From a virus: a stretch of DNA of 64,000 bases. The notes beneath the pieces are model-generated. The model was not told where the DNA came from. It saw only the letters and a program-made list of their open reading frames with translations, and did not search any database. The translations under genes were made by a program, and so were the position numbers. Positions 959-62,617 of the stretch are shown one piece after another. Within the stretch, counting starts at the first letter, position 1; each line of letters opens with the position of its first letter. The stretch lies in IMG/VR virus record IMGVR_UViG_3300013102_000002, positions 110,511 through 174,510 of that record. One strand, written 5' to 3'.

Positions 959-1165
959 AAAGGGAAGTGATGATATGTTTCCTGTTGATTTAGAAATTTT
1001 CAAGGACGTTCTTGATGCGGTTGTTAGTGGAGACTATACATATAGCGAGTTGTTGGAGTTAAGAGACAAGTTGAAAGACGTAGCGGACTATGTAGAACGG
1101 TTGTTAGATGAAGAGTAAATGATGATAAAACTGTTAATTTATGAAGAAATTAAAGGAGGATAAAA

Positions 1166-1372
1166 ATGGATAAATATGAAGTAGGATCAAAAGTGATGTT
1201 GCTTGAAAGTAGTTATGCAGAAAATTTGGGGATCACAGGAATGACCGGATACATTATTGATGAAGATAGTGATCATTATGATTATGCAGTAGAATATTCT
1301 CTTCCAAAACTGAATAGAAAAATGAAGGACTTTTTCAATCACAAAGAACTAACTTTAGTCACTGAGGATTAA
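1166..1372 (+). CDS. hypothetical protein
   Basis: ORF with GGAGG SD directly after repeat site 1125. Confidence 0.7.
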   Translation: MDKYEVGSKVMLLESSYAENLGITGMTGYIIDEDSDHYDYAVEYSLPKLNRKMKDFFNHKELTLVTED

Positions 1373-1416
1373 TAATGAACAAACCTAAGAAAAAATTGGT
1401 ACTAGGGGAGAATAAA

Positions 1417-1680
1417 ATGGAAACGAAACTTGGCGAATGGGCTGAAAGTATTAATGCCTTTTGGTGTGGTGGGAATGGTATGGAATGTGTTGCACGAAAA
1501 GGGGCTTTAGAGGTACTTGTTTATGACTGCGACCAGTATCCATGTCCACCGAATTACGTAGTTTTGTTGGGGATGGGGCGAAGAATTAGAACGCTGGATG
1601 ATTTCAACGAAGCATTAACCAGTGGAGTACGGATGAAAGCGACTTATGAAAAAGCTGGAACTGGAGCATTTGGAGATTAA
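1417..1680 (+). CDS. hypothetical protein
   Basis: ORF; start moved to the ATG after the GGGGAG SD. Confidence 0.6.
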   Translation: METKLGEWAESINAFWCGGNGMECVARKGALEVLVYDCDQYPCPPNYVVLLGMGRRIRTLDDFNEALTSGVRMKATYEKAGTGAFGD

Positions 1681-1729
1681 TTTCTTGATAAAAACCGCAT
1701 TTTATTTGAATATTTAAGGAGATGGTAGA

Positions 1730-1996
1730 GTGGATATTTTTCAAACTATTCAGAAGAAAGTAAATAAAATTGCCAAAGAGACATATAAATTGGATGAAGA
1801 TCCGCCAGAATTCATCGTCAGTCTATTATATGAAAAGGCAGAAAACGGCGCAAAGGATATTGATCATAAAATTATCCTAACCATTAAACATTGTGGATTT
1901 TCATTTAGCAAAGTGATTTTTCCTCAAACATCGCAAAGATACGGTTATGAATCTTTAGAAGAAGAAATGAAATATATGTATAACAAAACGATGTAA
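1730..1996 (+). CDS. hypothetical protein
   Basis: ORF with AAGGAG SD after repeat site 1688. Confidence 0.7.
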   Translation: MDIFQTIQKKVNKIAKETYKLDEDPPEFIVSLLYEKAENGAKDIDHKIILTIKHCGFSFSKVIFPQTSQRYGYESLEEEMKYMYNKTM

Positions 1997-2160
1997 GAGG
2001 TGAATCATGAGCATTGATAAAGATGGTTTTGGTAACGAAGTATGTTCTAAGTGTGGAGAAGAGATATATAACTCAGAGACATTGAGTAGGTGTTTGAGAT
2101 GTGGGAAATCGACTCCCAGAGAAATGAGCGGTAAGGAATATTATAAGAATAAATATATGG

Positions 2161-2538
2161 ATGGTGAAAATAATGAAAATTGAAGTGCCGCTATATAAGG
2201 AATCAGAAAAGTATATCAAAGAAACTTTTTCACGATACACCGAGAGTAGGGAGTTGCCATTTTCATTGACACTTGACAATTGCATTATCCATATGTATCC
2301 GCACAGTGATACATACGATGATAATGGCGAATTGAATGGTTATGTTGATGCCTTGTTTTTTAGAGCACATATATACGATGTGAAAAATGGTGTAGTTTAT
2401 AAATCTGAAATTCACGATGCAATTTTTACTGAAGCAAACTGTCAAATTAAATATTTTAAAGACATGAGTACAATGGTTCATTTTGAGAGACCAATTAATA
2501 TAATTATGGGCAGAGCAATTCACGTAATGAGTGTTTGA
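2161..2538 (+). CDS. hypothetical protein
   Basis: Co-oriented 125-aa ORF. Confidence 0.65.
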   Translation: MVKIMKIEVPLYKESEKYIKETFSRYTESRELPFSLTLDNCIIHMYPHSDTYDDNGELNGYVDALFFRAHIYDVKNGVVYKSEIHDAIFTEANCQIKYFKDMSTMVHFERPINIIMGRAIHVMSV

Positions 2539-2585
2539 TAATGGTTAATAAAATAAGGAATTGATTAGGAAAGGAGGGCTGCTTA

Positions 2586-2774
2586 ATGGAACTGAATGGA
2601 ATATATGTAGTTTTATTTAAACATCCAGATGATAATACAAGTTCTTGTCATCATTACAGGTTTGAAGGCAGGTGTGAGAACTTTGTTACAATAGGTACTT
2701 GTGCTTTTTCAAATGACAAAAAAGAAATGCTATTAGTTAACTATAGAGATATAGTTCAGATGAGATTAAAATAA
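2586..2774 (+). CDS. hypothetical protein
   Basis: AAGGAGG SD; lies between two degenerate repeat sites. Confidence 0.65.
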   Translation: MELNGIYVVLFKHPDDNTSSCHHYRFEGRCENFVTIGTCAFSNDKKEMLLVNYRDIVQMRLK

Positions 2775-2822
2775 CGCCTTACCAAATGGATCTTTTAAAT
2801 AGAAAGGATGAAATAAATACAC

Positions 2823-3104
2823 ATGAGTGAAACTAAAGTAGTTAATAAATATCACAAATTACCATATGACATCTATTGCGGCAGAGGATCTAAATGGGGA
2901 AACCCATTTGTTATAGGCAAGGACGGAGATAGAGATGAAGTGTGTGATAAATACGAAGAGTGGTTTCCTAGTCAAGAACACTTGGTCAAAGACCTGCATG
3001 AGTTAAAAGGGAAAACTTTGTGCTGCTTCTGTAAGCCTAAGAGGTGTCATGTTGATTTTTTAGCAAAAAGGGCAGATGAAACTAGAAAGGAAAGTGCCAA
3101 TTGA
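2823..3104 (+). CDS. DUF4326 family protein
   Basis: YCGRGSKWGNPF...DRDEVCDKY...LKGKTLCCFCKPKRCH signature. Confidence 0.85.
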   Translation: MSETKVVNKYHKLPYDIYCGRGSKWGNPFVIGKDGDRDEVCDKYEEWFPSQEHLVKDLHELKGKTLCCFCKPKRCHVDFLAKRADETRKESAN

Positions 3105-3283: not shown

Positions 3284-3326
3284 GTCTTAATGAATTCATC
3301 ATTTCACGGAGAAAGGGAGAGGTAAC

Positions 3327-3563
3327 ATGAACGAATTTGAAGAATTAAAAGAGTATGAAGAGGATTATTTAAAAAGTAATTGGTCTCGTATGGACTTATT
3401 TTTAGCAGAAAAAATTAAAATGCAAAGTAGTGAGTTGGAGAACTTGAGGAAGTTTTATAGTTATTTTCGTGAATTGTATGGCGAAGGTCTGGAGGTAGCA
3501 AATTGGCACAAAAACGGAGATCTGGAACCATTTGATAACCTCTTTGATTCCGCCGAAGAGTGA
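3327..3563 (+). CDS. hypothetical protein
   Basis: SD present; bounded by repeat sites 3290 and 3563. Confidence 0.7.
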   Translation: MNEFEELKEYEEDYLKSNWSRMDLFLAEKIKMQSSELENLRKFYSYFRELYGEGLEVANWHKNGDLEPFDNLFDSAEE

Positions 3564-3597
3564 TAAAATAAAACTTTTATGAGGAGATGAGAAAAAT

Positions 3598-3909: not shown

Positions 3910-3942
3910 ATTTTGATTAATAGTTGAGAGGAGAAGGAGTTA

Positions 3943-4531: not shown

Positions 4532-4532
4532 T

Positions 4533-4918: not shown

Positions 4919-5317
4919 ATGAAGAAAATAAAAGTTATCTGTAACAAATGCGGAAAATCAATCAAACGCTCTTATGATGAAGACTTTAAAACAATCAATC
5001 TGGATTTTGGGTATGAGAGTAGTTTTGACGGAGAGACTTGGAGTTTCGATCTGTGCGATGATTGCTTAGAGGAGATGATTAAAACATTTAAATATCCTCC
5101 GTCTGGATTTAAAATTGATAATCATTTATTACTAGATGATGACATGCATCAGAGAGTGTTTGAAGACTGGAAGATAACTGGCGAATGGGAAGATTTAAAA
5201 TATCATACATATGAACAGTTAGTAGATCTAAACGGTTATATGAGCGCAGGATACTTAAACACATATATCGAAAAGTATCACAAATTAATGCCCATGCTAG
5301 AAAATAATGATATTTAG
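4919..5317 (+). CDS. hypothetical zinc-binding protein
   Basis: CNKC and CDDC pairs; AAGGAG SD. Confidence 0.7.
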   Translation: MKKIKVICNKCGKSIKRSYDEDFKTINLDFGYESSFDGETWSFDLCDDCLEEMIKTFKYPPSGFKIDNHLLLDDDMHQRVFEDWKITGEWEDLKYHTYEQLVDLNGYMSAGYLNTYIEKYHKLMPMLENNDI

Positions 5318-7208: not shown

Positions 7209-7266
7209 ACTTCATAAATGATAGGTTTTATTATAACAAAAATACATATAAAAGGAGAAATAATTA

Positions 7267-8294: not shown

Positions 8295-9473
8295 ATGTAT
8301 AAATCAATCTACATTCCAGTAAAAGCAAATAAAGCAGATATAGTTTATCTTTTTCAAACCAGAAGATTATCTGCCGAAGTATGGAATTTATGTGTCCAAC
8401 TTGACAAATCAAATAGAAAAGAAACTGGAAAGTCTCTTACAATGTCAGAAATTCAAAAGTTAACAAAGAAATGTGTGGGGCTACATGCCAAAGGTATACA
8501 TCATGTATCTCACAAATACCTATTTGCAAGAGACGCAATGTTTCGGTCTAGGGAGTCAGGTGTGGAAAGAGTCAGATTACCATATAAAAATAAGCGATAT
8601 TTCAATACTGGCTGGGACTACCAAAGTATAAAAATTGACTATGACAAGGGAATCATTTTTCTTGCTCGACAAAGTAGTATTGTTGACGGAAAAGTAAAAA
8701 GAAACCCCCGTGTAAAATGTTATGCAAGAACTATTCCAAAAAATATTGTAGAGATTGAATTAACGCACAAGGGGAAGTTGATGCTTTGTATTAAGTACAA
8801 AGAAGAAGATTATCTCGAAGTTAAACGTGAGAATGAGGCATCTATTGATCTTGGTGAAATTCACGCAATAACATCTATGTGCAACAATAAGAACGGAGTT
8901 ATAATTACTGGTCGAAAAATCCGAGAAATAAAACATCTAAGAAATAATAATTTATCCGTACTGCGTTCCAAAAGAAGCAAATGCACAAAGGGTAGTAGGC
9001 AGTATAGAAAATACTCTAGGGCAATTGCAAAATTACAGGTAAAAACAGATACCAGAGTAAATGACTGTGTTCACAAAGTTTCTAAACAATATCTTGATTT
9101 TTGTCTAACAAACAATATAGGCAAGGTTTATTATGGAGATCTTGATTCTGCCACACGCTCCACGAAGCAGAATAATAAAGGGAATAATCACGTTAGACAG
9201 AAATTGAGTCAATGGAATTACGGTGAACTAATGCGGCAAGTAGAAAATAAACTAACTCGTCACGGAATCAAACTAGAAAAGGTCAAAGAATATTATACCT
9301 CACAGAAGTGTCCACAATGTAAAACTCTGAATAAAGTTCATAACCGCGAATACAAATGTTCATGCGGATACAAGCAACACAGAGACATTGTAGGAGCAAT
9401 AAATATACTTAATGACAATGGTGGATACTCAATAGTGAGATATGAAACAAAATTGTATCTGCAAATTGCTTAG
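8295..9473 (+). CDS. tnpB: TnpB RNA-guided endonuclease (IS200/IS605 family)
   Basis: RuvC-I SIDLGE, VHKVS, YYGDL, E.YTSQKCPQC...CSCG zinc finger, RuvC-III HRDIVGAINI. Confidence 0.9.
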   Translation: MYKSIYIPVKANKADIVYLFQTRRLSAEVWNLCVQLDKSNRKETGKSLTMSEIQKLTKKCVGLHAKGIHHVSHKYLFARDAMFRSRESGVERVRLPYKNKRYFNTGWDYQSIKIDYDKGIIFLARQSSIVDGKVKRNPRVKCYARTIPKNIVEIELTHKGKLMLCIKYKEEDYLEVKRENEASIDLGEIHAITSMCNNKNGVIITGRKIREIKHLRNNNLSVLRSKRSKCTKGSRQYRKYSRAIAKLQVKTDTRVNDCVHKVSKQYLDFCLTNNIGKVYYGDLDSATRSTKQNNKGNNHVRQKLSQWNYGELMRQVENKLTRHGIKLEKVKEYYTSQKCPQCKTLNKVHNREYKCSCGYKQHRDIVGAINILNDNGGYSIVRYETKLYLQIA

Positions 9474-9576: not shown

Positions 9577-9617
9577 ACGAAAGGCACGTTTTATCAAAAC
9601 TTTAAGGAGGTAGTAAC

Positions 9618-11639: not shown

Positions 11640-11692
11640 CACGATGAAATGCGTGTTTTATTAATAAATAAAAATATATAGGAGATGAAATT

Positions 11693-15664: not shown

Positions 15665-16279
15665 GTGAACATTATTAAAATTGCAGGGATTAGTATTAAT
15701 CTGAAGAATCGTGAAAAGTGGGTTGCAATTATTGGTTCTAGAAACGCCACAACAGATGAACTTAAAACAGCATTTAATTTTTCATTCAACCTTGCTTCTC
15801 AAGGATACATAATTGTTTCAGGACTTGCCAAAGGAATTGATGCTGCTGCACACAAAGGGGCAATTGCAGCAAAAGGAAAAACAGTAGCATTGGTGAATGC
15901 ACCAATCGAACAAGATATTTATCCTTGGCAGAATAGAAGTCTTGCCGAACAAATTAAGCAATTTGGATGTATCATTCATCCGTTCACTGGTAAGGCAACA
16001 GAGGACAATGAAAAGGGCTTGAGCCAATTTTCTAAGCGTCTGATCGAACGAGATAGACTTCTGGCAAGACTGTGTCCCAAAGTCGTTACAGTTAAGAATG
16101 AGGGAGTTATTGATGGCGGTACACGATATGGTATGACTTATGGCAAACAGTATGATCAAGATGTTTATCGTTATGATAACCAGATGACGCTACACAAAAA
16201 CCCCGAAGTCAAAGAGGGTAAGATTTGGTGGAATATGGAGTTAGATATTGAAGGTTTGATTGACGAATATTTCTCATAA
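15665..16279 (+). CDS. DprA/Smf-like SLOG-domain protein
   Basis: VAIIGSR, IVSGLAKGIDAAAH.GA, ERDR and GGT motifs. Confidence 0.85.
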   Translation: MNIIKIAGISINLKNREKWVAIIGSRNATTDELKTAFNFSFNLASQGYIIVSGLAKGIDAAAHKGAIAAKGKTVALVNAPIEQDIYPWQNRSLAEQIKQFGCIIHPFTGKATEDNEKGLSQFSKRLIERDRLLARLCPKVVTVKNEGVIDGGTRYGMTYGKQYDQDVYRYDNQMTLHKNPEVKEGKIWWNMELDIEGLIDEYFS

Positions 16280-16357
16280 AATTGGGCTTTCATCAGAAAA
16301 TAAGTTGAGTAAAACAGAGCAATTAAGAGTATTTAAGAGATACTGGGAGGTTCTATT

Positions 16358-18589: not shown

Positions 18590-18805
18590 TTGGAATTCAT
18601 GGGAGGAGGTATAGAAATTGGCCGGAAAATCGATCTACTTCACGGATAAAGAGTTGAAAATGATTAGAGATGCTTTTGATCAATATAACTACTCTTTTGA
18701 GGGTGATGATCTCACCGATGAAGAGACTGAAGAAAAATATTCTTTGGCAGAAAGTATTCGAAACAAAGTAAAACGATGACCTATTAAAAACATTCTTTCA
18801 TAAAG

Positions 18806-19541: not shown

Positions 19542-19748
19542 GTGATATATGTGGGTTTAAGACCGAAAGAAGATCAGAGAATTAAGTTTTGTCAATTTGG
19601 TACAGCAGAAATTCGCATTGGCACAGTAAAGCGTATTCTAAGACCGGAGTTTTATCGTCACTTAAAGAGAGTGCAGTATCTTGTTGAATGTGACGGTGAA
19701 CAACTACATATAGAACCACATGAAATGATTGAGTATGTATCCAAATGA
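19542..19748 (+). CDS. hypothetical protein
   Basis: Bounded by repeat sites 19519 and 19745. Confidence 0.6.
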   Translation: MIYVGLRPKEDQRIKFCQFGTAEIRIGTVKRILRPEFYRHLKRVQYLVECDGEQLHIEPHEMIEYVSK

Positions 19749-19953
19749 AATATGACTTTCACGAAGAAATGGAAGGAGAAATATAATGATTGAAATTACA
19801 AAGGAAGAATACGACATTATTAAAAGAATTCTAATTGATGGAACAGGTGATGCTATAGTGAATATAACCGATGGATCAAGAAGAGCTGTAATTATTATGG
19901 AAGATGCTTTTGAAGAAAATTAAACTTAACTAGAGAGGAGAGGAAGATACACA

Positions 19954-20574: not shown

Positions 20575-20634
20575 AAAACCCGCATAGAATAAGGGTTTTT
20601 TGATACATAAATCATGATAAAAGTGGCATTTCAT
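20575..20634. repeat. composite site: AAAACCC-N11-GGGTTTT palindrome, 21 bp, core repeat
   Basis: AAAACCCGCATAGAATAAGGGTTTTTT ... ATAAAA gtggca TTTCAT. Confidence 0.8.
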
Positions 20635-21841: not shown

Positions 21842-21892
21842 TATCTTGATTAAATTTTCTTTTGATTAAGAAAAGAAGAAAGGAGGATTCGT

Positions 21893-22090: not shown

Positions 22091-22201
22091 GTTGCTTATA
22101 AAATCTTTCTTTCAACAGGAATATTTTACCGCAAGCTACTTTGTGATAAATAAAGTATTATGGTGGGGTAAAATAATCCAATTTGAACGGAGAGATTTAT
22201 T

Positions 22202-22978: not shown

Positions 22979-22989
22979 TGAAGAAACCA

Positions 22990-23049
22990 AAAACCCTTAT
23001 AAACACTGGACTTTTTAATCACTAAAAGCGCATGAAAGCCCGATTTTAT
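22990..23049. repeat. composite site (accessory palindrome plus core repeat)
   Basis: AAAACCCTTATAAACACTGGA, 21 bp, ATGAAA gcccga TTTTAT. Confidence 0.75.
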
Positions 23050-25093: not shown

Positions 25094-25143
25094 TAGATTA
25101 CATGAAAGTTCTGTTTTATCAAGAAAAAAGGGAGTGGGTATTT

Positions 25144-25326
25144 GTGGAACATCATGATTGTGAGAGCAATATTTATTATGCTGGGACACCTGTAAATAAG
25201 TGGTTTCTTTTGGTCGAGGGCAGCTCGTGGGATACATATACTGACGGATTTGAAGTAATTAATGTTGAAATCAGTTATTGCCCTCACTGTGGAGCAAAAT
25301 TGGAAACGATTAGTGAAGCTGTATAA
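25144..25326 (+). CDS. small zinc-ribbon protein
   Basis: ISYCPHCG.KL; GTG start after GGGAG; bounded by sites 25102 and 25326. Confidence 0.6.
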   Translation: MEHHDCESNIYYAGTPVNKWFLLVEGSSWDTYTDGFEVINVEISYCPHCGAKLETISEAV

Positions 25327-25379
25327 TGAAATCTCAGTTTTATAAGGAATAAAAATAATTATAATAAGGAGAATTAAAA

Positions 25380-26126: not shown

Positions 26127-26196
26127 GGATTCATGAAACCCTCATTTCATAAGGAATTTAAAAGTAAAAATACATAATTAGTCAAAGGGGATAGAT

Positions 26197-26436: not shown

Positions 26437-26441
26437 CATTT

Positions 26442-26488
26442 TGTCTATATATAGTATTTATACTTGAGAATATATCTATATATAGACA
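26442..26488. promoter_or_regulatory. tandem NrdR-box-like palindromes (CTATATATAG twice, 31 bp apart)
   Basis: TGTCTATATATAGTAT and TATCTATATATAGACA. Confidence 0.45.
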
Positions 26489-26912
26489 TGAAAACCACAT
26501 GAAAGAGGTATTTTATTAAAACATGAAAAGGAGTGGATTGATTTGAAAATTATGAATACAGGAAGTCTGGTTTTCGAAGAAATCGGAGCAAACATTTATG
26601 TAATGGGAGCTAACCGATATGGGAAAATAGATAATGCGGTATATTCAAAAGAAGATTTTAAAGACCTAGAAAAAATGGGATATATGATTGAAATTAGAAA
26701 GTAAAAAATAAAAATAATAGGAGAGGTGAAATATAATGCATCAAGAAAGAGTTCAGAAATTTCTACAAAAACTTGATCAACTTACTGAAGATTTTGGTAT
26801 TTATATCGATCTTGATTATAAGAGCAATGTTAAATTAAAAGATTCTGAAACAGATGAAGTGCTCGGAAATGACTTTTGTTTTGCAGAGGAACTTGGTTAT
26901 GAATGTTATTGA

Positions 26913-30439: not shown

Positions 30440-30469
30440 ATCAAATATAGGTTTTATCAAAAGAAAGAG

Positions 30470-31555: not shown

Positions 31556-31978
31556 ATGAATCTTTACGAAATTCAATTTGAACATTTTTCACAAAAAGAC
31601 AGTCAAAGAGGAATTTTAGTCTATCTTGCTGCTAAGTCAGATGAACATGTTTATGAATGGTTGAAGTCTAATCCAGACCTGGGAAATAATAATTATATTT
31701 TTACAACTTATCAAGACAATGAACGAGATGGGGAAATTTTTGATATTTATGCTGATGACTGGTCGATTATTGGAACAGAATCATTCAAGGAACGAATCAT
31801 TAGATTGTCTGGAGAAATAAACGATGATGAAGTTGAACTTACTGATCTTTATTATGGTAAAACTCTTTATGGGTGGAAATTGGTCAAAGAAGATGTCAAG
31901 CCAGATGTTTTTGCAATCGTTGAGGAATGCGGCATTAATCTGATTAATGGACTGGATATCGAAATTAAAAACCCTTGA
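31556..31978 (+). CDS. hypothetical protein
   Basis: AAGGAG SD. Confidence 0.7.
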   Translation: MNLYEIQFEHFSQKDSQRGILVYLAAKSDEHVYEWLKSNPDLGNNNYIFTTYQDNERDGEIFDIYADDWSIIGTESFKERIIRLSGEINDDEVELTDLYYGKTLYGWKLVKEDVKPDVFAIVEECGINLINGLDIEIKNP

Positions 31979-32027
31979 TAAATAAGGGTTTTTTGCACAT
32001 CATTTCATCATAAAATAAAGATTTTAC
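31968..32027. repeat. composite site (accessory palindrome plus core repeat)
   Basis: AAAACCCTTGATAAATAAGGG, 21 bp, ATAAAA taaaga TTTTAC. Confidence 0.8.
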
Positions 32028-32047: not shown

Positions 32048-32106
32048 TTTAATAAATAAATATATATACAAAAACCATTGACATTCATTTAATAAATAAA
32101 TATAAT
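32048..32106 (+). promoter_or_regulatory. consensus sigma-A promoter with two TTTAATAAATAAATAT boxes
   Basis: TTGACA(32078)-17-TATAAT(32101); boxes at 32048 and 32088. Confidence 0.85.
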
Positions 32107-33697: not shown

Positions 33698-34135
33698 AAC
33701 TGTGGTTAAAATTGGAGATGATACAATGAAAACTTACACTTCTGAAGAAATCATTCAAAAACTCAAAGATCAAATATCTTCAACAAACCTTTATGACCGT
33801 GACAGCTTCAATGAAGGATATCGCGAAGCACTAAGAGACATGATTCAAGTGTTTAAATCGATATAAAATTTGTGTTTTATAAGAAAAGGAGATGTGAAAA
33901 ATGGGTGAAGCTAATCGAAGAAAATTACTTAATGATTATCCAGAGATAAACGAGAAGCAAAAGCAAAAGAAGATGTCTAAAAGAGATATCATAAACGAGA
34001 TAAGCACTAGTAACCCTATGCTTACTGTAGCAGGATTGGTTGGAGGATTTGGCGGCCATATTTGAGAATTGATGATATAAGAGTTTTATAGTGAACAGTA
34101 GTCAAATTATACGAAATAAGAAGAGGAGATAAAAA

Positions 34136-35118: not shown

Positions 35119-35165
35119 AATATTTGATAAATACATACTTTTATAAAGAAATGAGGGGGATAATA

Positions 35166-36044: not shown

Positions 36045-36251
36045 GGAGGTTTAATTATGATTTGGTTTGTGGTTGTTGGAGGACTTTTCAATATCATATC
36101 TGCACTTGTGATGAATACAAAAGATGTGCCAAGCGCTGTATTCTTTAAAGTGATTCCTTTCATCTTGGGGTTGGGTTGCATTCTTTACTCAGTGTCTTAT
36201 TTTAACATTCTATAAAACTTATCTTTTATCAAAACAAGGAGGTGTACTATA

Positions 36252-38821: not shown

Positions 38822-38881
38822 AAAAACCGCGAAAACATTGAGTTTTTTGAAGGCAATAATCTGATGAAATTGAGTTTTTAT
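38822..38881. repeat. composite site (accessory palindrome plus core repeat)
   Basis: AAAAACCGCGAAAACATTGAG, 21 bp, ATGAAA ttgagt TTTTAT. Confidence 0.75.
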
Positions 38882-39416: not shown

Positions 39417-39456
39417 CAATATAAAATACAAGATTCATCAAAAAAGGAGGATAATA

Positions 39457-39762
39457 ATGTATTATTTGCGCAAGGAATCAGAAGAAAAAATTATTTCCGA
39501 AATTACTAAGACTGATGGGTCAGTAATACCAGAAAGAAAATTTATGAGCGAAGAACGTGCTGTCTTCAAACACCATGATTTTTCACGTTTTTATAGAGGA
39601 ACATTTAATGGACTGACGGAGAAATATCAAGGTATGAAAGTATACCAGTGCAAGACATTAAAGAAAATTCTTGAGCTTAGGGAAAGTACATTTAATTATA
39701 GTGGTGAGTGGTTTGATGTTTATGATGAGAATGGAAAAGTGGAAATTGATGATTTGAAATAG
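39457..39762 (+). CDS. hypothetical protein
   Basis: AAGGAGG SD; between sites 39421 and 39754. Confidence 0.7.
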   Translation: MYYLRKESEEKIISEITKTDGSVIPERKFMSEERAVFKHHDFSRFYRGTFNGLTEKYQGMKVYQCKTLKKILELRESTFNYSGEWFDVYDENGKVEIDDLK

Positions 39763-39805
39763 TGGTTTTATTAGGTCACAAATTCATATGAAAGGAGACT
39801 GTTCT

Positions 39806-40099
39806 ATGCCAAACTATTTAAATGACTCTAATAACAAAAGGGTTTTTCTCTATGTGAGAGGTGATGATTATTCAGCTCTCACTTTTGATCAAAAGTTTTA
39901 TGCTCAAGAAGTATACGAAGATATGGTTAGTAAAGGCGAAACGTCTAGAACGATTGACGATGAAGATTATATGGATATTGATATCGTAGAGTTTAACAAG
40001 GTTGATGAGAGATTTTTGAAGTGGGTTAAGGATTATCTCTGTGACTACGATCAACTTAAAGGCAGCGATATTTTTGAAGTTAAGCCAGTAAAGATATAA
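39806..40099 (+). CDS. hypothetical protein
   Basis: AAGGAG SD; between sites 39754 and 40099. Confidence 0.65.
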   Translation: MPNYLNDSNNKRVFLYVRGDDYSALTFDQKFYAQEVYEDMVSKGETSRTIDDEDYMDIDIVEFNKVDERFLKWVKDYLCDYDQLKGSDIFEVKPVKI

Positions 40100-40154
40100 T
40101 CAAATAATGCTTTCATGATGTTTTAAAAATAAAAATAAGAGGAGTTGTTGTAAT

Positions 40155-42202: not shown

Positions 42203-42261
42203 AAAACGTTGATTTATAAGGGTTTTTTAGACCGAAAAACCTCATGAAAGTCAAATTTCAT
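42202..42261. repeat. composite site (accessory palindrome plus core repeat)
   Basis: AAAAACGTTGATTTATAAGGG, 21 bp, ATGAAA gtcaaa TTTCAT. Confidence 0.8.
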
Positions 42262-42280: not shown

Positions 42281-42670
42281 ATGATCATAAATAAAAGTAT
42301 TGAAGCCGTAAAAGGTTTGGTAGAGTATTCTATTAATTTCGATGGTTATTCAGAAGAAGATGAACTGCTAGAATATGAAGAATTCAACAACATCAAAGAG
42401 TTGATGGTGGCATTAAGCAAAGAAAAGTTGCAAGAGATAAAAGAAACTTATCATGAAGCAGACAGAATAAAAATCATTAGTATTAGCTTTAAAGGAACAA
42501 CAGAAGACAAGGATACATCATTTCAAATTTTCTTGACTGACAATGAAGTTAGAGAAAATGTTGTAGCAAAAATTGATAACGATGATATCGATAATCGACT
42601 TCTTTCTAATGTGGAAAAGATCAAAGAAATCATTGATAACACGCTTAATCAATATCCGATCAAGTATTAA
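42281..42670 (+). CDS. hypothetical protein
   Basis: Between sites 42244 and 42670. Confidence 0.7.
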   Translation: MIINKSIEAVKGLVEYSINFDGYSEEDELLEYEEFNNIKELMVALSKEKLQEIKETYHEADRIKIISISFKGTTEDKDTSFQIFLTDNEVRENVVAKIDNDDIDNRLLSNVEKIKEIIDNTLNQYPIKY

Positions 42671-42908
42671 TAAAATGCACATTTGATGAAGAAAAGGAGG
42701 ACAGAACTTGAAAGATGAAAGAGAGTTCGAAAACGAGAATAGAATGTTATTGGGCAATATAGCTAGAATAATTCTTTCAAATGATGCAGATGAGATCGAA
42801 AATATGAGAATATGGGCGCATAAACGAATTGATGACATGGCTGATTTTAAAATTAAAGAGACTGAATAAATTGTAACATTTATTAAGAAAAAGAAAGGGT
42901 GAATAAAT

Positions 42909-45418: not shown

Positions 45419-45461
45419 AATATAATAAAAATAATATTTTATCAAGATTGCGAGGTGCAAA

Positions 45462-48900: not shown

Positions 48901-49216
48901 TAAGATGACTAATGCGGGACATATCTCATATGTTGAACTTGATGGTAATGCACGAAACAATCTAGAGGCATTTAAAAATATTGTTCAATATGCTCTTAGT
49001 AAGAACATTGGATATTTCAGTATTAATCATCCAATTGATAAATGTATGACCTGTAATTTTGATGGTGTTATTAATAAAGAATGTCCTTCTTGTGGAGAAA
49101 CCGATGAAAACAATATTGCAAGAATCAGACGTATAACTGGGTATTTAGTCGGGACTCTTAACAGATTCAATGGTTCGAAGAAAGCAGAAGAACGAGACCG
49201 TGTTAAGCATTCATGA
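45908..49216 (+). CDS. nrdD: class III anaerobic ribonucleoside-triphosphate reductase with N-terminal ATP cone and intein
   Basis: VTKRDG ATP cone, IHVHDLD, THNC, TMG|C-RT, YITNSFH, zinc CxxC pairs, glycyl-radical RRITGYL. Confidence 0.95.
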   Translation: MTHTQVTKRDGIISEYDPNKITDAIIKAMRMTEVGIDKELAEKITLKVTQQVMKSKNTYSVELLQDLIEKDLMMSSRKDVAREYITYRQKRTEERLKQSELFKIGEGIISGENEEVTKENANLNGESYSGKMNRFGSEYSKMYARNVMLPKRLVKAMDEGFIHVHDLDHYAVGTHNCLFIPFDKLLANGFQVSDKGSVRTPNSIMTAMAQVAIIFQCQQNSQFGGCGAAKFDWDLAPYVTKSFKKHFRKGQMYFGETYVEVSDDKLFLDNSALLSVLPKSYTYAKEETELETKQAAESMIHNLNTMASRAGGQVPFTSITFGLCTSTEGKMISNAILNASMNGLGHSETAIFPQLIFQCKQGVNQNLGEPNYDIFMKAIECSSKRLFPNFVNVDADFNLQYYDPSDPDTAVATMGCVDGDEVVTYKLNDILYVESFKRMYDNVERIGFKSRFGISEYVECERLEIFDSYSGGFVVVKKVIKNPDQNNWVIVKLNNGRSMLATKDHPLPVEGRGRIFVKDIKIGDSIPVTYDQYSEESEVYENEKAWLDGMLLCDSSYSGGCVRISLGMDEKDAAEASQTALRRVYGIKNKVVFQQRGVKGIYLDIVSYESGTEKLNALADMFGGWNKINRKVPDYIFRSSRENKLSFLAGMIDADGHIKNMHGSARVEIGSTNKELALQQVALAQAVGIKAKLYLNKYNGNDKSKIRYKVEFYNTYELNKYLKCKKKRDVLENCKASNVIVHECAKVTEIIEMGFMNKHSYDVETESDRFDVSGIYSHNCRTRVISNRFGKGCQSGRGNVSFNSINLTKLGIEYGAVNGRSEIDVDGFWNKLDEILDITLDGLLHRFDIQGNQPAKASDFMMQNGSWTGGEKLHPNQKIKDLLRMGSISIGFVGLAECLKALFGKHHGEDQDVWYFGQELIHYIREYCDMKSDEHDMNITCFASPAESLAGKFARMNNKQYGVIEGVTDREYITNSFHIPVYFNLPAHKKIELEAPFHKMTNAGHISYVELDGNARNNLEAFKNIVQYALSKNIGYFSINHPIDKCMTCNFDGVINKECPSCGETDENNIARIRRITGYLVGTLNRFNGSKKAEERDRVKHS
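47153..48244 (+). mobile_element. intein (364 aa) with LAGLIDADG homing endonuclease, in nrdD
   Basis: Begins CVDGD after ATMG; block B ATKDHP; FLAGMIDADG; ends YDVET...IYSHN followed by extein Cys (CRTRV). Confidence 0.95.
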
Positions 49217-52804: not shown

Positions 52805-53272
52805 ATGACAGACATGATAAAACAACCATTTCATGAAGAAATTAAGGTAAAAAAACTCAATGAACTAGCGGTTATTCCAGCATATCAAAGCGATGAGGCG
52901 GCAGGATTTGACTTCCATGTTGTAATTGAGGGCGAATCCATTGTTCTTGAACCAGGGAAGCGAGTGTTGCTTGGAACTGGATTGGCATTTCAAATTCCAA
53001 AAGGAAAAGAAATGCAATTACGTCCTCGTAGTGGCCTAGCATACAAGCATGGGATCACCGTTTTGAATAGTCCCGCAACAATTGATAGTGATTTTCGAGG
53101 GGAAGTTAAAGTGCTTCTCATCAACCACGGGCAAGAATCATTTACTATTAAACATGGTGAACGTATTGCTCAAGGGGTCATTGCTAATGTTCCACCAGTT
53201 AAACTTGTTGAAGTTGACGAGCTAGATGAAACAGAACGGGGATCTGGCGGGTTTGGTCATACGGGCAAGTAG
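52805..53272 (+). CDS. dut: trimeric dUTPase
   Basis: AAGFD, RPRSGLA, TIDSDFRGE, GERIAQ, RGSGGFGHTG. Confidence 0.95.
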   Translation: MTDMIKQPFHEEIKVKKLNELAVIPAYQSDEAAGFDFHVVIEGESIVLEPGKRVLLGTGLAFQIPKGKEMQLRPRSGLAYKHGITVLNSPATIDSDFRGEVKVLLINHGQESFTIKHGERIAQGVIANVPPVKLVEVDELDETERGSGGFGHTGK

Positions 53273-56353: not shown

Positions 56354-56412
56354 AAAACCCTTTAAAATCAACGTTATTTTAAGCAAAAAACTTCATGAAA
56401 GGCGAGTTTTAT
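56354..56412. repeat. composite site (accessory palindrome plus core repeat)
   Basis: AAAACCCTTTAAAATCAACGT, 20 bp, ATGAAA ggcgag TTTTAT. Confidence 0.75.
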
Positions 56413-56439: not shown

Positions 56440-56811
56440 ATGATTAACAAAGAAATTATTGAACTTTATCACAAACATCACAATGGAATTGAGAAATTTA
56501 TTGAAAGTATAATTTCTTTTTATGGAGATATTGATGGTAAGTACTATGAAATCTCCAGCGTCGATGCTGTTTACGGAGGACTCAACATCAAGGTAAGTCA
56601 TTACATAAATAGTTGGGGAGATGAATATTTTGAGAAATTCATTCCTCTGTCACTCCTTTGTGATCAAGATCAATATGATGATCTCCAAAGCAAAGCTGAA
56701 GAAAGTGTAATCAAAAGAAATCAATTGAAAAATGAAAAAGATAAGGAAGAACTTCAGAAAAAGCTAGATGAAGCAAAGGATTTTCTTGAAAAGCATAGCA
56801 ATATCATTTAA
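56440..56811 (+). CDS. hypothetical protein
   Basis: Between sites 56395 and 56808. Confidence 0.7.
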   Translation: MINKEIIELYHKHHNGIEKFIESIISFYGDIDGKYYEISSVDAVYGGLNIKVSHYINSWGDEYFEKFIPLSLLCDQDQYDDLQSKAEESVIKRNQLKNEKDKEELQKKLDEAKDFLEKHSNII

Positions 56812-56854
56812 AATACCTGTTTTATCTGAAATTCAATCAAAAGGAGGATACAAA

Positions 56855-58752: not shown

Positions 58753-58796
58753 CCTCATGAAAACTATGTTTTATTTAAAAAATTATTCAAAGTTTA

Positions 58797-59420: not shown

Positions 59421-59443
59421 TTAACTCTTAGGAGGAATTACAC

Positions 59444-59680: not shown

Positions 59681-59874
59681 ATATGGAACAAGAATGCACT
59701 AACGGATGTGGAAAATTAGAGAGTGTGCGTGGTCATATTGAGACAAATGATGGACGTACATATTTTAAGGTGGACATTATATATTGTCCAGATTGCTTAT
59801 ACATTGAGTATGTGGATGCAAATTTATAAGTTGATAAATGGCTGCTTTTATCAAAATACAGAAGGAGAGGTATC

Positions 59875-60204: not shown

Positions 60205-60219
60205 AGGAGAATAATACAT

Positions 60220-60516: not shown

Positions 60517-60533
60517 AAGGGGGTTGAAATATA

Positions 60534-60743
60534 ATGAGTTACGAAGAAGGAACGCATTTAAAATCGCACTATAAAATTCAATATCGCAAAAGAACATCTT
60601 CTGGTGATTATGAGTCTAAATATATGGATTGGAATAATTACGATGAAGTTGTTACTCGATTAAGAACATTGCGAAACAATCCAAAGATAGAAAGTATCGT
60701 GATTTTAAAGAGGAGTATATACGATGTGACCGAAGAATTCTGA
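60534..60743 (+). CDS. hypothetical protein
   Basis: Stop overlaps site 60743. Confidence 0.6.
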   Translation: MSYEEGTHLKSHYKIQYRKRTSSGDYESKYMDWNNYDEVVTRLRTLRNNPKIESIVILKRSIYDVTEEF

Positions 60744-60785
60744 CGAAATGAGACTTTCATTAAAACATTTAAAGGAGAGAATATA

Positions 60786-61178
60786 ATGAATATTGTAGAA
60801 CTAGTGAATAAGATGAGTAATGATGAGATAGCATACTCTAATGAATTAAATGAGCGATTGATCAAAAAAGACTATGGCCTGTACTTATACCATGGACCGA
60901 ACCAAGTAAATGATACGATAGTTGACTGTAATATGAACTATTTGTTGACAGAAGATTGGGAAATTGCGTATGAACTCGATTACTCAAAAGAGATGACATT
61001 TCCCCTTTATTATAACTATCGTGGAACTTCGTGCATCAGTCTATTTATGAAGATGGATGACTCGTGCCTTGGAGGAATGGCTCAATTATATAGTAGCTTT
61101 AATGAGATGATGTTTGAGGGAAGTGTAGACGAGTGCTTTAGTTTTATTGGTGAGCTATTGAAAGGTAGTCACGCATAG
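60786..61178 (+). CDS. hypothetical protein
   Basis: Between sites 60743 and 61189. Confidence 0.7.
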   Translation: MNIVELVNKMSNDEIAYSNELNERLIKKDYGLYLYHGPNQVNDTIVDCNMNYLLTEDWEIAYELDYSKEMTFPLYYNYRGTSCISLFMKMDDSCLGGMAQLYSSFNEMMFEGSVDECFSFIGELLKGSHA

Positions 61179-61225
61179 TTAAAATTTGATAAAAACTGAA
61201 TTTCATGAAGAAAGGAATATCATAT

Positions 61226-61573
61226 ATGAGTAAAGTAATTGAGTTTAAACCCAAATCTAAAAGAGATTTATATGTGGTTGATGGATATCATGTCATCTTA
61301 GCAAGTTCTAGCGAAGAAGCACTAGCTTACGCACAAGTTGACGATAACACAGATGATTTAATGGATGTTGTAAAATTGGATGATCAATTAGAAGTCCCAG
61401 TGATTCATTCTGGGAAAGTGGAAATCATTTTATGGGATCGAGAACCAAGAGAGATTGAACGCTTAAGTTTTATGTTAAAGATTAGGGATTTTATTGATAG
61501 AGATTTAAAAAGGTTTATAACTCCATCGCGAATCGACATCATCGATGACAATGCAATAAAACCTAAAAAGTAA
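61226..61573 (+). CDS. hypothetical protein
   Basis: SD after site 61189. Confidence 0.65.
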   Translation: MSKVIEFKPKSKRDLYVVDGYHVILASSSEEALAYAQVDDNTDDLMDVVKLDDQLEVPVIHSGKVEIILWDREPREIERLSFMLKIRDFIDRDLKRFITPSRIDIIDDNAIKPKK

Positions 61574-61598
61574 AAACGATTTACAAGGAGATGTAGAT

Positions 61599-61778
61599 AT
61601 TAAAATACTATTTTTCAATAAAGAGAAAGAAGAAGAAATGGAAATTGTCCGTATTTCAGATGATGAATTTACGCTGTGTATAACAAATTCTTCGGGAGAT
61701 CAATGTTTTATTAGTGATATTAACTGCGATGATTTATTAAATATTAAAGATACCATTGAGGAACTATTGATTAAATAA
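61599..61778 (+). CDS. hypothetical protein (59 aa, probable ATT start)
   Basis: AAGGAG SD, then an open frame IKILFFNKEK... Confidence 0.5.
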   Translation: MKILFFNKEKEEEMEIVRISDDEFTLCITNSSGDQCFISDINCDDLLNIKDTIEELLIK

Positions 61779-61978
61779 AAGGAGTCTATTATGAATATTG
61801 GACAACAAGTAAACTACGAGATTCAGCGAGAAGCAGCTAAATTTTGTGAAGATAAATGCCCTTATAAAATTTCAAACAGTTCATATGAAGAAGGTTACGA
61901 ATTGCCATGTACTATAGGTAAATGTTATGTCATCGAATTCAAAAGACATTTAGTTAGATAAAGAAGAGAGGAGTTCAA

Positions 61979-62545
61979 ATGTCAGTATACTATACAAGCG
62001 ACACCCATTTTCATCATAAGAATGTCATCCAGTTATCAAATAGACCGTTCGAATCAATTGAGGAAATGAATGAGATGTTCATTGATAACTGGAACAAGAC
62101 AGTTAATCGCAATGACACGGTTTATCATCTTGGGGATTTCGCTTTAGGTGGAACAACAAAATGGGAGGATATCCTCACTAGGTTAAAAGGGAAGATTCAT
62201 CTTGTGTTAGGAAATCACGATGATAAGAAAGTAGTAAATAAAGTGGCTCATCATTTTGCATCTATTGATCTTATGGTTGAGAAGAAAATTGATAAGCAGC
62301 ATTTATTCTTATTCCATTACCCAATTGATATTGGCCTTACACCTAATGCTTACAGTATTCATGGACACATTCATGAGCGACCATCTAGGTTAGTCAATCA
62401 AATTAATGTTGGTGTAGATAGCGATTTTACCAGAGAGAAAGTCGGATTCGGGAACTTGATTCCTGAAGAGATGATTTTGGATGAGTTGAAAGTTAGAAAG
62501 TTGGAAGTATTGAGATTGAGGGAAGAAAGTAGACAAAACTCTTAA
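61979..62545 (+). CDS. calcineurin-like metallophosphoesterase
   Basis: SDTHF.H, HLGDF, GNHD, HYP and HGHIH motifs. Confidence 0.92.
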   Translation: MSVYYTSDTHFHHKNVIQLSNRPFESIEEMNEMFIDNWNKTVNRNDTVYHLGDFALGGTTKWEDILTRLKGKIHLVLGNHDDKKVVNKVAHHFASIDLMVEKKIDKQHLFLFHYPIDIGLTPNAYSIHGHIHERPSRLVNQINVGVDSDFTREKVGFGNLIPEEMILDELKVRKLEVLRLREESRQNS

Positions 62546-62557
62546 AATGGATTTTGA

Positions 62558-62617
62558 AATAACCGCATAAACATTGGGTTTCTTGAACGCTAAAGGTTAA
62601 TAAAACTTTACTTTCAC
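62558..62617. repeat. composite site (accessory palindrome plus core repeat)
   Basis: AATAACCGCATAAACATTGGG, 21 bp, ATAAAA ctttac TTTCAC. Confidence 0.75.

Follow-up and report, generated by a model that had tools for sequence, protein, structure and literature searches.

Palindromes between the early genes

The window analyzed is a 64-kb stretch of the 174.5-kb genome of an SPbeta-like large Paenibacillus phage (G000), and early genes of this phage are interspersed with copies of a palindrome, ATRAAA-N6-TTTYAT. Scoring this pattern against dinucleotide-preserving shuffles of the window, we found 19 exact matches vs 0.34 expected (shuffle maximum 3) and 41 matches with at most one mismatch vs 6.3 expected. 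In the whole genome, the exact pattern occurs 30 times with a spacer of 6 and zero to two times with each other spacer from 0 to 13, and a symmetric half-site matrix with a cut-off of 14 bits gave 53 sites at spacer 6 and zero to five at other spacers. The motif is genuine and above chance, with approximately 38 credible copies in the window and 60 in the genome. Its arms have a strongly conserved core of 5–6 bp (TRAAA) and weaker outer bases to about 10 bp; as a point against a crossover function, this core is below the 11–13-bp arms of dif, lox and FRT.

We found 58 of the 60 sites scoring above 12 bits are intergenic, with a stop codon on one side (-4 to +10 nt from the site) and the next Shine-Dalgarno on the other, the following start codon being mostly 17–26 nt downstream. 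Only about one-third of the gene junctions carry a palindrome. At the left end of the window are sites at 1125..1142 (centre CTGTTA, one mismatch, 15.7 bits, intergenic, next start 23 nt on), 1688..1705 (ACCGCA, exact, 22.6 bits), 3563..3580 (TAAAAC, exact, 19.4 bits, adjoining the upstream stop codon), 7214..7231 (GATAGG, one mismatch, 15.0 bits) and 9577..9594 (GGCACG, one mismatch, 18.1 bits). Further along are 18784..18801 (ACATTC, one mismatch, 16.8 bits), 20617..20634 (GTGGCA, exact, 24.5 bits), the weaker, intergenic 21849..21866 (TTTTCT, 14.1 bits), 25102..25119 (GTTCTG, exact, 23.0 bits), 35127..35144 (ACATAC, 16.5 bits), 36212..36229 (CTTATC, exact, with the upstream stop codon inside the site), the best copy at 38864..38881 (TTGAGT, exact, 26.3 bits) and 45425..45442 (ATAATA, exact, 22.6 bits). 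The right end has 56395..56412 (GGCGAG, exact, 25.5 bits), 58757..58774 (ACTATG, exact, 22.2 bits), 59834..59851 (GGCTGC, 15.4 bits), 60743..60760 (TGAGAC, 17.8 bits) and 61189..61206 (ACTGAA, exact, 25.5 bits), with weak copies at 56808..56825 (TACCTG, 12.0 bits) and 62600..62617 (CTTTAC, 12.1 bits).

These results agree with a sequence-only reading of this DNA in its inverted repeat with an invariant 6-bp spacer, its estimate of fewer than one exact copy by chance, and its placement of copies between an upstream stop and the next Shine-Dalgarno. Its 18 exact copies become 19 upon recounting, its approximately 50 copies in the window fall to the 38 above, and the arms of about 10 bp that it described do extend that far, although weakly. 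In its list of copies abutting stop codons, 5315 is no site, and 5797 and 12777 are degenerate with two mismatches each. It saw none in the nrd/dut/thyA block, yet a good site lies there at a gene junction, 3' of the nrd large-subunit gene (52817..52834, CAACCA, exact, 25.3 bits, centre common to genomes G001–G003).

Regulatory and RNA readings of the sites

Most sites have no nearby promoter, as the sequence-only reading had also noted, and sigma-70-type promoters are not enriched at the palindromes. The motif is not itself a promoter. At the weak site 32010..32027 (TAAAGA, 12.3 bits; centre in G001 and G003, out of order), there is a perfect promoter downstream of the site. The palindromes could be pure operators of an early-gene regulator, with no role in recombination and with centres that provide position-specific tuning. 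Approximately 60 sites adjoin translation starts in the early arm, and plasmids and phages include examples of regulons with many operators (e.g. KorB on RK2). The scarcity of promoters, and the location of the 32010 promoter downstream of its site, argue against operators. The spot just 5' of the Shine-Dalgarno would suit a regulatory site too, a point against a crossover function.

A specific operator, that of an MrpR-type master repressor, was the main alternative of the sequence-only reading. MrpR (YopR) has a tyrosine-recombinase fold but is catalytically dead, and its operator, SPBRE, is a repeated intergenic element with about 10 copies at promoters in SPbeta (PMC10516654). Like the palindromes, SPBRE is intergenic, repeated and from the same phage family; however, its sequence is different, and the palindromes are 3–6 times more numerous and mostly away from promoters. 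Nine of ten MrpR ChAP-seq targets in SPbeta share approximately AAAAATATGTATA, a different motif, and there are ten peaks vs 36 palindromes in SPbeta (PMC10516654). In addition, the G000 recombinase described below matches YopP, not MrpR. We rejected the MrpR/SPBRE identity based on the different motif and the ten peaks vs 36 sites, and consider it highly improbable.

The location of the sites in transcribed spacers just 5' of the Shine-Dalgarno also invites an RNA hairpin for processing, stabilization, termination or translational control. However, the R/Y positions of the two arms are independent, without co-variation, single-arm mismatches are never compensated, the stems would be AT-only, and the sites are found unchanged in the late arm, which is transcribed oppositely. 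The outer arm bases are even anti-correlated in G001–G003 (odds 0.19, p 0.001); hence, the typical site pairs a GTAAAA arm with an ATAAAA arm. We rejected the hairpin on this independence or anti-correlation of the R/Y pairs and on the lack of compensatory change, and give it hardly any credence.

Six-base centres and homology breaks among related phages

Each palindrome has its own asymmetric centre. For 327 sites in six genomes, we found no duplicated, inverted-duplicate or palindromic centres within a genome vs 17.8 expected, and the expectation for the four less related of these genomes was 10.4 (P ~3e-5). Between genomes, G000 shares 11, 8, 9 and 4 centres with G001, G002, G003 and G004, respectively (reverse-complement control 0); these are mostly colinear, with flanks unrelated as DNA and mostly also as protein, and 2 of the 11 shared with G001 are out of order. 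G001 and G003 have 41 centres in common, every one colinear, and their flanks are homologous on neither side for 17, on the left only for nine, and on the right only for three. Around the helicase gene, 15 of 17 relative loci also contain window centres, which are at colinear places in 13 (control 0).

Within the window, the centres of 11644..11661 (TGCGTG, exact; colinear place, unrelated flanks) and 42244..42261 (GTCAAA, exact) are common to G001–G004, and that of 39754..39771 (TAGTGG, one mismatch) is common to G001–G003 and several loci. For 19745..19762, 12 of the 17 loci have the same centre (TATGAC) at the colinear place, and the flanks of most of these are less than 0.3 identical. Other centres are shared by 16276..16293 (TTGGGC, exact, 25.7 bits) with G002, G003, L008, L011, L014 and L022, by 40099..40116 (TAATGC) with L008, L011, L014 and L022, by 39421..39438 (TACAAG) with L007, L009, L011, L020, L021 and L023, and by 42670..42687 (TGCACA) with L009. 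Locus L012 shares the centres of 25326..25343 (TCTCAG, exact), 34072..34089 (TAAGAG, one mismatch), and, with unrelated flanks, 26133..26150 (CCCTCA, exact) and 26499..26516 (GAGGTA, exact). Where both flanks are homologous, identity is 91–96% for centres, 79–86% for flanks and 97–99% for arms, and centres change about 3-fold more slowly than flanks. Hence, with the same centres in the same order and the intervening genes replaced, the copies look like addressed crossover points for gene swaps between phages.

The sequence-only reading had instead proposed shuffling like that of integrons or pdif modules. In such a system, single mobile cassettes would leave as circles and enter at other sites, so that gene order is shuffled, and host XerC/XerD might be the enzyme. 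Promoterless single genes bounded by sites and the presence of a tyrosine recombinase fit this proposal. The conserved order (41 of 41 for G001/G003, with only 2 of 11 displaced for G000/G001) does not, nor does the lack of within-genome centre duplicates, which circle insertion would create; moreover, there is no attI/Pc-type platform, and the arms, unlike attC, keep their sequence rather than their structure. We consider such cassettes distinctly improbable, whereas the claim that palindromes delimit gene units gained, lost or replaced between relatives held.

Comparing relatives, as the earlier reading had suggested, we found homology breaks coincide with the sites at nucleotide resolution: alignment ends cluster at palindrome edges (offsets -2 to +1 and +13 to +22), and SPbeta and phi3T are 100% identical up to the palindrome, precisely where their homology is lost. 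The helicase-primase alignments end on the site 3' of the primase gene (30440..30457, TATAGG; orthologous centres TGTAGG and TATAGT in G001–G003) in about 11 of 17 relatives and within 6 nt in about four more. Homology to L012 begins at 22098..22115 (TCTTTC, a centre present in 10 of 17 loci; 87%) and stops at 23032..23049 (GCCCGA, exact; 89%), and another L012 alignment begins at 33863..33880 (TTTGTG, exact). In a laboratory phi3T-SPbeta hybrid, the crossover is in long homologous late-gene DNA rather than at a palindrome, which counts against a crossover function. Pure operators are at odds both with breaks exactly on the sites and with centres that outlast the exchange of the genes on both sides for unrelated genes, and we consider them improbable.

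Gene replacement might also be a by-product, in the absence of any dedicated site-specific recombinase, of a docked dimeric phage DNA-binding protein (a regulator, a nucleoid protein, or a ParB/KorB-like partner such as YopQ). Hot spots for short-homology recombination or replication template switching would then arise from the protein itself or from the 16–26 bp of identity. The symmetric, sequence-conserved arms, the constant position directly 5' of the Shine-Dalgarno, and the single-strand-annealing and RecD-like functions encoded by these phages fit docking, which would also preserve gene order since uninterrupted identity of 16–26 bp is found only at cognate sites. However, efficient homologous recombination usually needs at least this much identity or more, a non-contacted 6-bp operator spacer should drift freely, and docking leaves unexplained both the 3-fold slower evolution of the centres and their avoidance of palindromy and of duplication within a genome. 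We judge docking unlikely but by no means negligible. Short-homology recombination at a protein-bound site could yield the identical comparative pattern.

Our preferred reading, to which we give about half of our credence, is that the palindromes serve related phages as position-specific crossover joints, at which genes are exchanged in an ordered way; it draws on the anatomy of the sites, on centres that stay colinear although their flanks are replaced, on breakpoints that coincide with palindromes, and on a recombinase with an intact active site. The joints would act as double-stranded DNA, with inverted arms around a position-unique, asymmetric 6-bp centre. An encounter between two related phages, or of a phage with a resident prophage, would lead to crossover inside cognate sites (i.e. 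with the same centre). A segment bounded by adjacent joints, made up of a single promoterless gene or a few of them with a separate Shine-Dalgarno for each, would be replaced by the partner's version with gene order kept. For an Xer-like tyrosine recombinase, the centre would be the strand-exchange region, where the partners must match.

A candidate recombinase and known systems

As the sequence-only reading predicted, a tyrosine recombinase is encoded outside the window (genome 63010-64077). It is the single G000 protein with PF00589 and PF02899, is homologous to SPbeta YopP (E 4e-34), and has homologues in G001–G004. The invariant residues R166, K194, H258, R261, H279 and Y288 correspond in alignment to the catalytic residues of XerD; hence, the hexad is intact. 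Its best matches of solved structure are XerA, XerD, an XerC-like protein and, among weaker profile matches, IntI4. It is not the integrase, as G000 has a separate large serine recombinase for integration. This YopP-family, Xer-like enzyme is the most likely catalyst at the palindromes, which it would bind and cut, and matching centres would be mechanistically required.

SPbeta, phi3T, Tsamsa, FADO, Geobacillus E3 and Paenibacillus prophages show enrichment of the core TRAAA-N6-TTTYA. The motif is 4–17-fold enriched in Tsamsa, E3 and FADO, all three of which encode the recombinase. In the unrelated large Bacillus phages SPO1, G, AR9 and 0305phi8-36, there was no clear enrichment (1.3–1.4-fold or none), and the recombinase was not found. 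Every motif-bearing phage examined encodes an Xer-like, YopP-family recombinase that is distinct from the integrase, and the hexad of this protein is intact except in SPbeta, in which Lys replaces the second catalytic Arg (HSFK), yet 36 palindromes are kept. This substitution, and the identity of only 33% between the SPbeta and phi3T YopP proteins despite identical sites, count against crossover joints, as does the approximately 2-fold enrichment of the exact pattern in Lactococcus phage 949 and a Staphylococcus SPbeta-like phage, both with the recombinase. The co-occurrence of the palindromes and their putative recombinase is confounded by common descent.

Among known systems, dif/Xer and the pdif modules of Acinetobacter plasmids have inverted recombinase-binding arms, a 6-bp central region and many copies bounding modules. 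The phage palindromes share the inverted arms, the 6-bp centre and the many copies around small gene modules, and XerA, XerD and an XerC-like protein are the closest solved structures of the candidate enzyme. However, the phage has one candidate recombinase of its own rather than host XerC and XerD, and its sites have near-symmetric arms, a centre each, and an order kept between genomes. Like integrons, the phage has promoterless single-gene units between tyrosine-recombinase-type sites, and IntI4 is among the weaker matches of its recombinase. Order is free in integrons, whose cassettes leave as circles and are inserted at attI, and attC is recognized as a folded single strand conserved in structure, not sequence; in contrast, the phage has sequence-conserved arms, fixed order, no duplicated centre and no attI/Pc platform. 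In the Rci shufflon of IncI plasmids, the pilus tip varies through inversion of segments of a single gene; the shufflon likewise has one tyrosine recombinase (a candidate in the phage) for many sites within one replicon, but no inversions were seen in the phage, where exchange is between genomes.

For T4-type phages, PeSLs are described as intergenic repeats, consisting of early promoters and terminator stem-loops, on either side of accessory genes in hyperplastic regions; their proposed mode of action is homologous recombination between repeats (PMC2839356, PMC4122927). As in these accounts, gene gain, loss and replacement in the phage are bounded by repeated intergenic motifs (PMC2839356, PMC4122927). 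Relative to PeSLs so described, the palindromes are neither promoters nor hairpins, and their centres are position-specific. In recombinase-mediated cassette exchange, a laboratory method, heterospecific lox/FRT sites have shared arms with differing spacers, so only like spacers recombine. As proposed for the phage, the segment between two different sites is swapped with order and orientation kept; however, that system is man-made with two sites, whereas the phage would have a natural, genome-wide array of approximately 40–70 addresses.

The palindromic site and its distribution

We found that the record, 174,510 bp with direct terminal repeats and 34% G+C, of which the window is the final 64 kb, encodes a portal protein, a tape measure protein, a PhoH-like protein, a split DNA polymerase and a large serine integrase (genome 9145-10629). 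The window encodes a DnaB-like helicase, RecJ, an RNA ligase, an intein-bearing NrdD, class I ribonucleotide reductase subunits and a TnpB gene, and nearly all of its genes lie on the + strand. This gene content is that of the SPbeta-like phages. The intein that interrupts NrdD, an anaerobic ribonucleotide reductase of 1102 aa (window 45908-49216), carries a LAGLIDADG homing-endonuclease domain, and a 443-aa protein at about 101-103.5 kb of the genome gave only a weak Pfam match, to DndB. When 15 kb of the window were compared with the phage collection by megablast, no near relative emerged; relatives were collected via the helicase protein, which is 87-91% identical to its counterparts in IMG/VR proviruses and in prophages from several Paenibacillus genomes.

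We counted 19 exact copies of ATRAAA-N6-TTTYAT in the window, where 0.34 are expected, and 41 copies, where 6.3 are expected, when one mismatch is allowed. In the whole genome, 30 exact copies have a 6-bp spacer, and every other spacer from 0 to 13 bp yields 0-2 copies each. Scoring with a symmetric half-site matrix gave the same picture: 53 sites with a 6-bp spacer exceed 14 bits, against 0-5 when the spacer is of another length. The inverted arms have a TRAAA core and weaker outer bases that extend to about 10 bp, and the fixed 6-bp centre is as in the 6-8 bp requirement for Xer/dif-type core sites. The sequence-only reading had described this repeat in the window, and the search of the whole genome and its relatives bore out both its enrichment and its specific spacer. 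Its count of about 50 sites was slightly too high, since there is no site at 5315 and those at 5797 and 12777 are degenerate; conversely, it had reported none within the nrd/dut/thyA/dfr block, where we found a strong site at a junction (52817).

Placement of the sites is regular. We found 58 of the 60 sites above 12 bits to be intergenic, with the upstream stop codon at -4 to +10 nt from the site core, a Shine-Dalgarno sequence 5-10 nt past the site and the start codon mostly 17-26 nt past it. About one-third of gene junctions have a site; most sites lie in the early/accessory arm (78-174 kb), and a handful are found between genes of the late arm, which is oriented the opposite way. The TnpB gene, an IS605 OrfB-family gene with Cas12f1-like TNB and OrfB_IS605 domains (window 8295-9473), lies between the sites at 7214 and 9577 and looks like an insertion within a cassette.

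Five whole related proviruses (G001-G005) each carry 50-67 copies of the core TRAAA-N6-TTTYA against 1-9 of the reversed control pattern. SPbeta has 36 palindromes, and there TAAAA-N6-TTTTA occurs 34 times and the same arms with any other spacer at most 8 times. Copies against reversed controls were 29 and 5 in Tsamsa, 42 and 10 in Geobacillus E3, 34 and 2 in FADO, 12 and 6 in Lactococcus 949, and 20 and 10 in a Staphylococcus SPbeta-like phage. Among unrelated large Bacillus phages, there was no clear enrichment by the same comparison in SPO1 (1 and 0), phage G (44 and 32), AR9 (27 and 21) or 0305phi8-36 (0 and 2). The palindrome is a signature of the SPbeta-like phage family.

The arms vary by clade: the outer base is A in the genome under study (G000) and SPbeta, and A or G in G001-G003 and G004. 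The two arms of G000 are near-identical and usually both begin with A. In G001-G003 the outer bases are anti-correlated (odds 0.19, p 0.001, 100 distinct sites), so sites there mostly combine a GTAAAA arm with an ATAAAA arm. This pattern, which is absent from G000, suggests that the two half-sites are functionally asymmetric in G001-G003 (loci L027-L055).

Such arms could in principle form an RNA or DNA hairpin. However, the R and Y positions of the arms are independent (A/C 27, G/T 30, G/C 17 and A/T 23 in G000 and G004), deviations in a single arm are never compensated, and the outer bases in G001-G003 are anti-correlated; we give an RNA hairpin almost no weight. A promoter was also rejected, as the 79 sigma-70-type promoter-like sites that we counted do not exceed the 91 expected, and neither promoters nor terminators are enriched in 16-36 kb. 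The earlier statement that most sites have no adjacent promoter agrees with this.

A second repeated element, in which an 8-11-bp stem (AAAAAACCCTTAT...ATAAGGGTTTTTT) lies between an A-run and a T-run, occurs in both orientations, and in the longer spacers its usual place is 15-20 nt upstream of a palindrome. We found it at window 20575-20601, 22989-23016, 31967-31994 and 38822-38848, and at genome 16999-17028, 39544-39570, 58765-58793, 93606-93633 and 97546-97574. In form it resembles a bidirectional intrinsic terminator, and its sequence is conserved. A repeat search of window 1-30000 turned up no 88-bp inverted-repeat pair, one arm of which might lie beyond the window. A perfect sigma-A-type promoter (TTGACA, 17 nt, TATAAT; window 32078-32106) lies downstream of the copy at 31967-31994 and the site at 32010, ahead of the gene at 32129, and is probably an internal operon start.

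The alternative offered by the sequence-only reading was an operator for a dimeric repressor, and it mentioned MrpR (YopR), the master repressor of SPbeta, in this connection. The MrpR operator is the 15-bp SPBRE; the word common to nine of ten MrpR ChAP-seq regions in SPbeta is AATATGTATA, the SPBRE word, rather than the palindrome, and the ten ChAP-seq peaks (PMC10516654) compare with 36 palindromes; an MrpR operator is scarcely credible as the identity of the site. AT-rich ATATACATATGTA-like repeats that resemble the SPBRE word adjoin palindromes at genome 78180-78290 and window 26440-26500, and these could possibly be the MrpR-type operators of G000.

Conserved centres and homology breakpoints

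The arms are common to all sites, and the centres differ from site to site. Among 327 sites in six genomes, we found no centre repeated within a genome, none present in both orientations and none palindromic, where position-specific composition predicts 5.6, 4.7 and 7.4, respectively. For the four less related genomes alone, 10.4 such centres are expected in total (Poisson P ~3e-5). Each site is thus given a direction by its asymmetric centre; positions 1 and 6 show a symmetric bias, to T/G and A/C.

The same centres recur between genomes. G000 has 11, 8, 9 and 4 centres in common with G001, G002, G003 and G004, against 0 in every pair for the reverse-complement control, and 9 of the 11 held in common with G001 are colinear. 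DNA homology is absent in the 120-150 bp on either side of these centres, and for most sites we found no protein similarity within 450-600 bp. In the helicase region, TTGGGC (16276), TATGAC (19745), TCTTTC (22098), TACAAG (39421), TAGTGG (39754) and TAATGC (40099) are colinear in most of 17 relative loci; the flanks there are unrelated, and the control gave no match. SPbeta and phi3T have 23 shared centres, also colinear. For the pair G001 and G003, all 41 shared centres are colinear; homology is present in both flanks at 12, in the left flank only at 9, in the right only at 3 and in neither at 17.

The sequence-only reading had proposed integron-like shuffling, in which cassettes are excised and inserted elsewhere. 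The conserved order (41/41 in G001 and G003) and the lack of any duplicated centre contradict this, and we regard such a system as very improbable. A purely regulatory operator is improbable as well, since it cannot account for centres that persist when the genes on both sides have been replaced.

At sites with homology on both sides, per-base identity is 91-96% in the centres, 79-86% in the 60+60-nt flanks and 97-99% in the arms, and 18 of 282 centre bases differ. As judged from these alignments, the centres are under constraint. They drift nonetheless: at the site that follows the primase gene, the centre is TATAGG, TGTAGG or TATAGT depending on the phage. Regardless of the enzyme, colinear conserved 6-bp centres amid replacement of both flanking genes need explanation. 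One explanation is a protein-docking site, with genes swapped as a by-product of short-homology recombination or template switching. This would likewise preserve gene order, but it leaves unexplained both the avoidance of palindromic or duplicated centres and their slow change, and we consider it unlikely.

Homology between relatives ends at the sites. When G001-G003 were aligned pairwise, left-hand ends clustered between offsets -2 and +1 of the 16-mer, and right-hand ends between +13 and +22; these offsets hold about 15-20% of alignment ends against 1.6% by chance. Coincidence of gene-replacement breakpoints with the sites, which the sequence-only reading had named as a check, is therefore what we found. 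Alignment ends of both kinds include the site; hence, the site outlasts replacement of either neighbour, as a control element owned by the downstream gene would not be expected to do. The helicase-primase alignment ends on the site at 30440 or within 6 nt of it in about 15 of 17 relatives, and alignments with one relative locus (L012) begin or end at 22098, 23032 and 33863. Between SPbeta and phi3T, 100% identity starts or stops at the palindrome itself at six junctions, and at one junction the left arm and centre are identical and the right arm is already different (TTTTA versus TTTCA).

A candidate recombinase of the YopP family

The genome has one PF00589 protein, of 355 aa (genome 63010-64077), which also carries an N-terminal SAM-like domain (PF02899). 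We found it to be 30% identical to SPbeta YopP (E 4e-34) and 43-57% identical to its homologues in G001-G004. The match to YomM was marginal (23% identity over 259 aa, E 0.006), and there was no significant similarity to MrpR/YopR (best E 0.064).

R166, K194, H258, R261, H279 and Y288, which correspond to the R-K-H-R-H/W-Y active site of tyrosine recombinases, are invariant in the five phage proteins. A search of solved structures with the single sequence gave no match; with a profile of the five homologues, the best matches were XerA, XerD and a XerC-like protein, followed more weakly by a XerD-FtsK fusion, IntI4 and HP1 integrase, and the invariant residues aligned with the XerD motifs LRVSEL, GKGNKER, HVLRH, GHS and IYTH. 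The sequence-only reading had placed the recombinase outside the window; a candidate with a full active site does lie there, about 15 kb from the site-rich arm. We infer that this YopP-family protein is the cognate recombinase of the sites and that proteins of the family bind and cut them.

Integration is covered by other enzymes: by the separate large serine recombinase in G000, and by SprA, to which both integration and excision are due, in SPbeta (PMC8612738). YopP is reported to be a conserved core gene, expressed in lysogens and with no assigned function (PMC10516654; bioRxiv 10.1101/2021.11.22.469490). We found homologues in 89 phage records; the phages concerned all have genomes of 114-170 kb and infect Bacillus, Geobacillus, Lactococcus, Staphylococcus and allies. 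The protein is absent from all four motif-negative control phages (SPO1, G, AR9 and 0305phi8-36), a co-occurrence of motif and recombinase that is confounded by descent. By recombinase identity, G000 and G004 (ATRAAA arms) separate from G001-G003 (GTAAAA/ATAAAA arms); as this is one contrast only, we give it no evidential weight.

The phi3T homologue retains the catalytic set, and it and the Paenibacillus-phage homologues keep HSxR. SPbeta YopP (NC_001884 78691-79767; L025:28691-29767) reads HSFK instead, with Lys replacing the second catalytic Arg, so the type phage may have a weakened enzyme.

The recombinase gene is directly followed by a gene for a 725-aa ExoV/Dda-like helicase (pair at genome 63010-66255; L004:3010-6255). 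The left end of Lactococcus phage 949 has the same gene pair, as ORF1 integrase-recombinase and ORF2 exodeoxyribonuclease, and the two proteins may be a functional pair.

Proposed exchange and comparison with known systems

In a tyrosine-recombinase core site, the central region must match between partners. Inverted arms with a fixed 6-bp centre, asymmetric and unique centres, conserved order, breakpoints on the sites and an intact Xer-like enzyme that is not the integrase fit such a core site. We see about an even chance that the sites are recombination joints at which the YopP-family enzyme would carry out order-preserving exchange between relatives. Common arms with position-specific centres would permit recombination only between cognate sites of two related genomes. 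Paired crossovers at neighbouring sites would then swap the intervening DNA with order and orientation kept, and the lack of duplicated or inverted centres would guard the genome from self-deletion and inversion.

More broadly, we tentatively propose, at a confidence just short of even, that large siphoviruses of Bacillus, Paenibacillus and Geobacillus (SPbeta-like and related) have a natural genome-wide addressed scaffold: 40-70 sites that share their arms, each position having a 6-bp centre of its own. A YopP-family recombinase would act on this scaffold, and co-infecting or resident relatives would exchange single accessory-gene cassettes allele for allele, with order intact. Anti-defence genes would likely be among the exchanged cassettes.

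Several reservations attach to recombination at the sites by the YopP-family enzyme. The strongly conserved portion of the arms is short, SPbeta YopP lacks one catalytic Arg, and SPbeta and phi3T share sites although their YopP proteins are divergent. Furthermore, recombination in a laboratory phi3T-SPbeta hybrid (PP526179) was of the ordinary homologous kind and took place in another part of the genome; the crossovers fall within long stretches of nearly identical late-gene DNA and are uninformative on the palindromes.

If the proposed exchange is correct, it would explain the long-observed gene-by-gene mosaicism of phage accessory regions by a mechanism that is precise, order-preserving and enzyme-driven, rather than by rare illegitimate events and a selection filter. 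YopP, a conserved SPbeta core gene, would gain a function, and the idea could be tested in a tractable system, SPbeta and phi3T in Bacillus subtilis. Dozens of mutually exclusive addresses for one recombinase would also be useful for genome engineering. The literature covered here, on SPbeta repeats, YonO, phage mosaicism with tyrosine recombinases and SPbeta itself, describes neither the palindrome nor this role for YopP; the 1999 SPbeta genome paper (Lazarevic) was outside its scope.

The closest phage precedent for repeat-bounded gene exchange is the PeSLs of T4-type phages (PMC2839356, PMC4122927). A PeSL combines a promoter with a terminator stem-loop, whereas the sites here have no associated sigma-70-type promoter and lack the covariation that a stem would leave.

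Among natural systems, integrons and pdif modules come nearest. Integron attC sites are folded single strands with extrahelical bases and variable sequence; in contrast, the arms here are conserved in sequence and show no pairing covariation. Integron cassettes are circles inserted at attI, beside intI and Pc, in free order, whereas order is conserved here and no centre is duplicated. A pdif site has one XerC arm and one XerD arm, is served by host Xer proteins and flanks modules in opposite orientations. By comparison, the arms of a G000 site are nearly alike, and those of G001-G003 tend to pair one G-type with one A-type arm. In function, the nearest parallel is the laboratory method of cassette exchange between heterospecific lox or FRT sites, of which the proposed system, if correct, would be a natural counterpart for the heterospecific-lox form.
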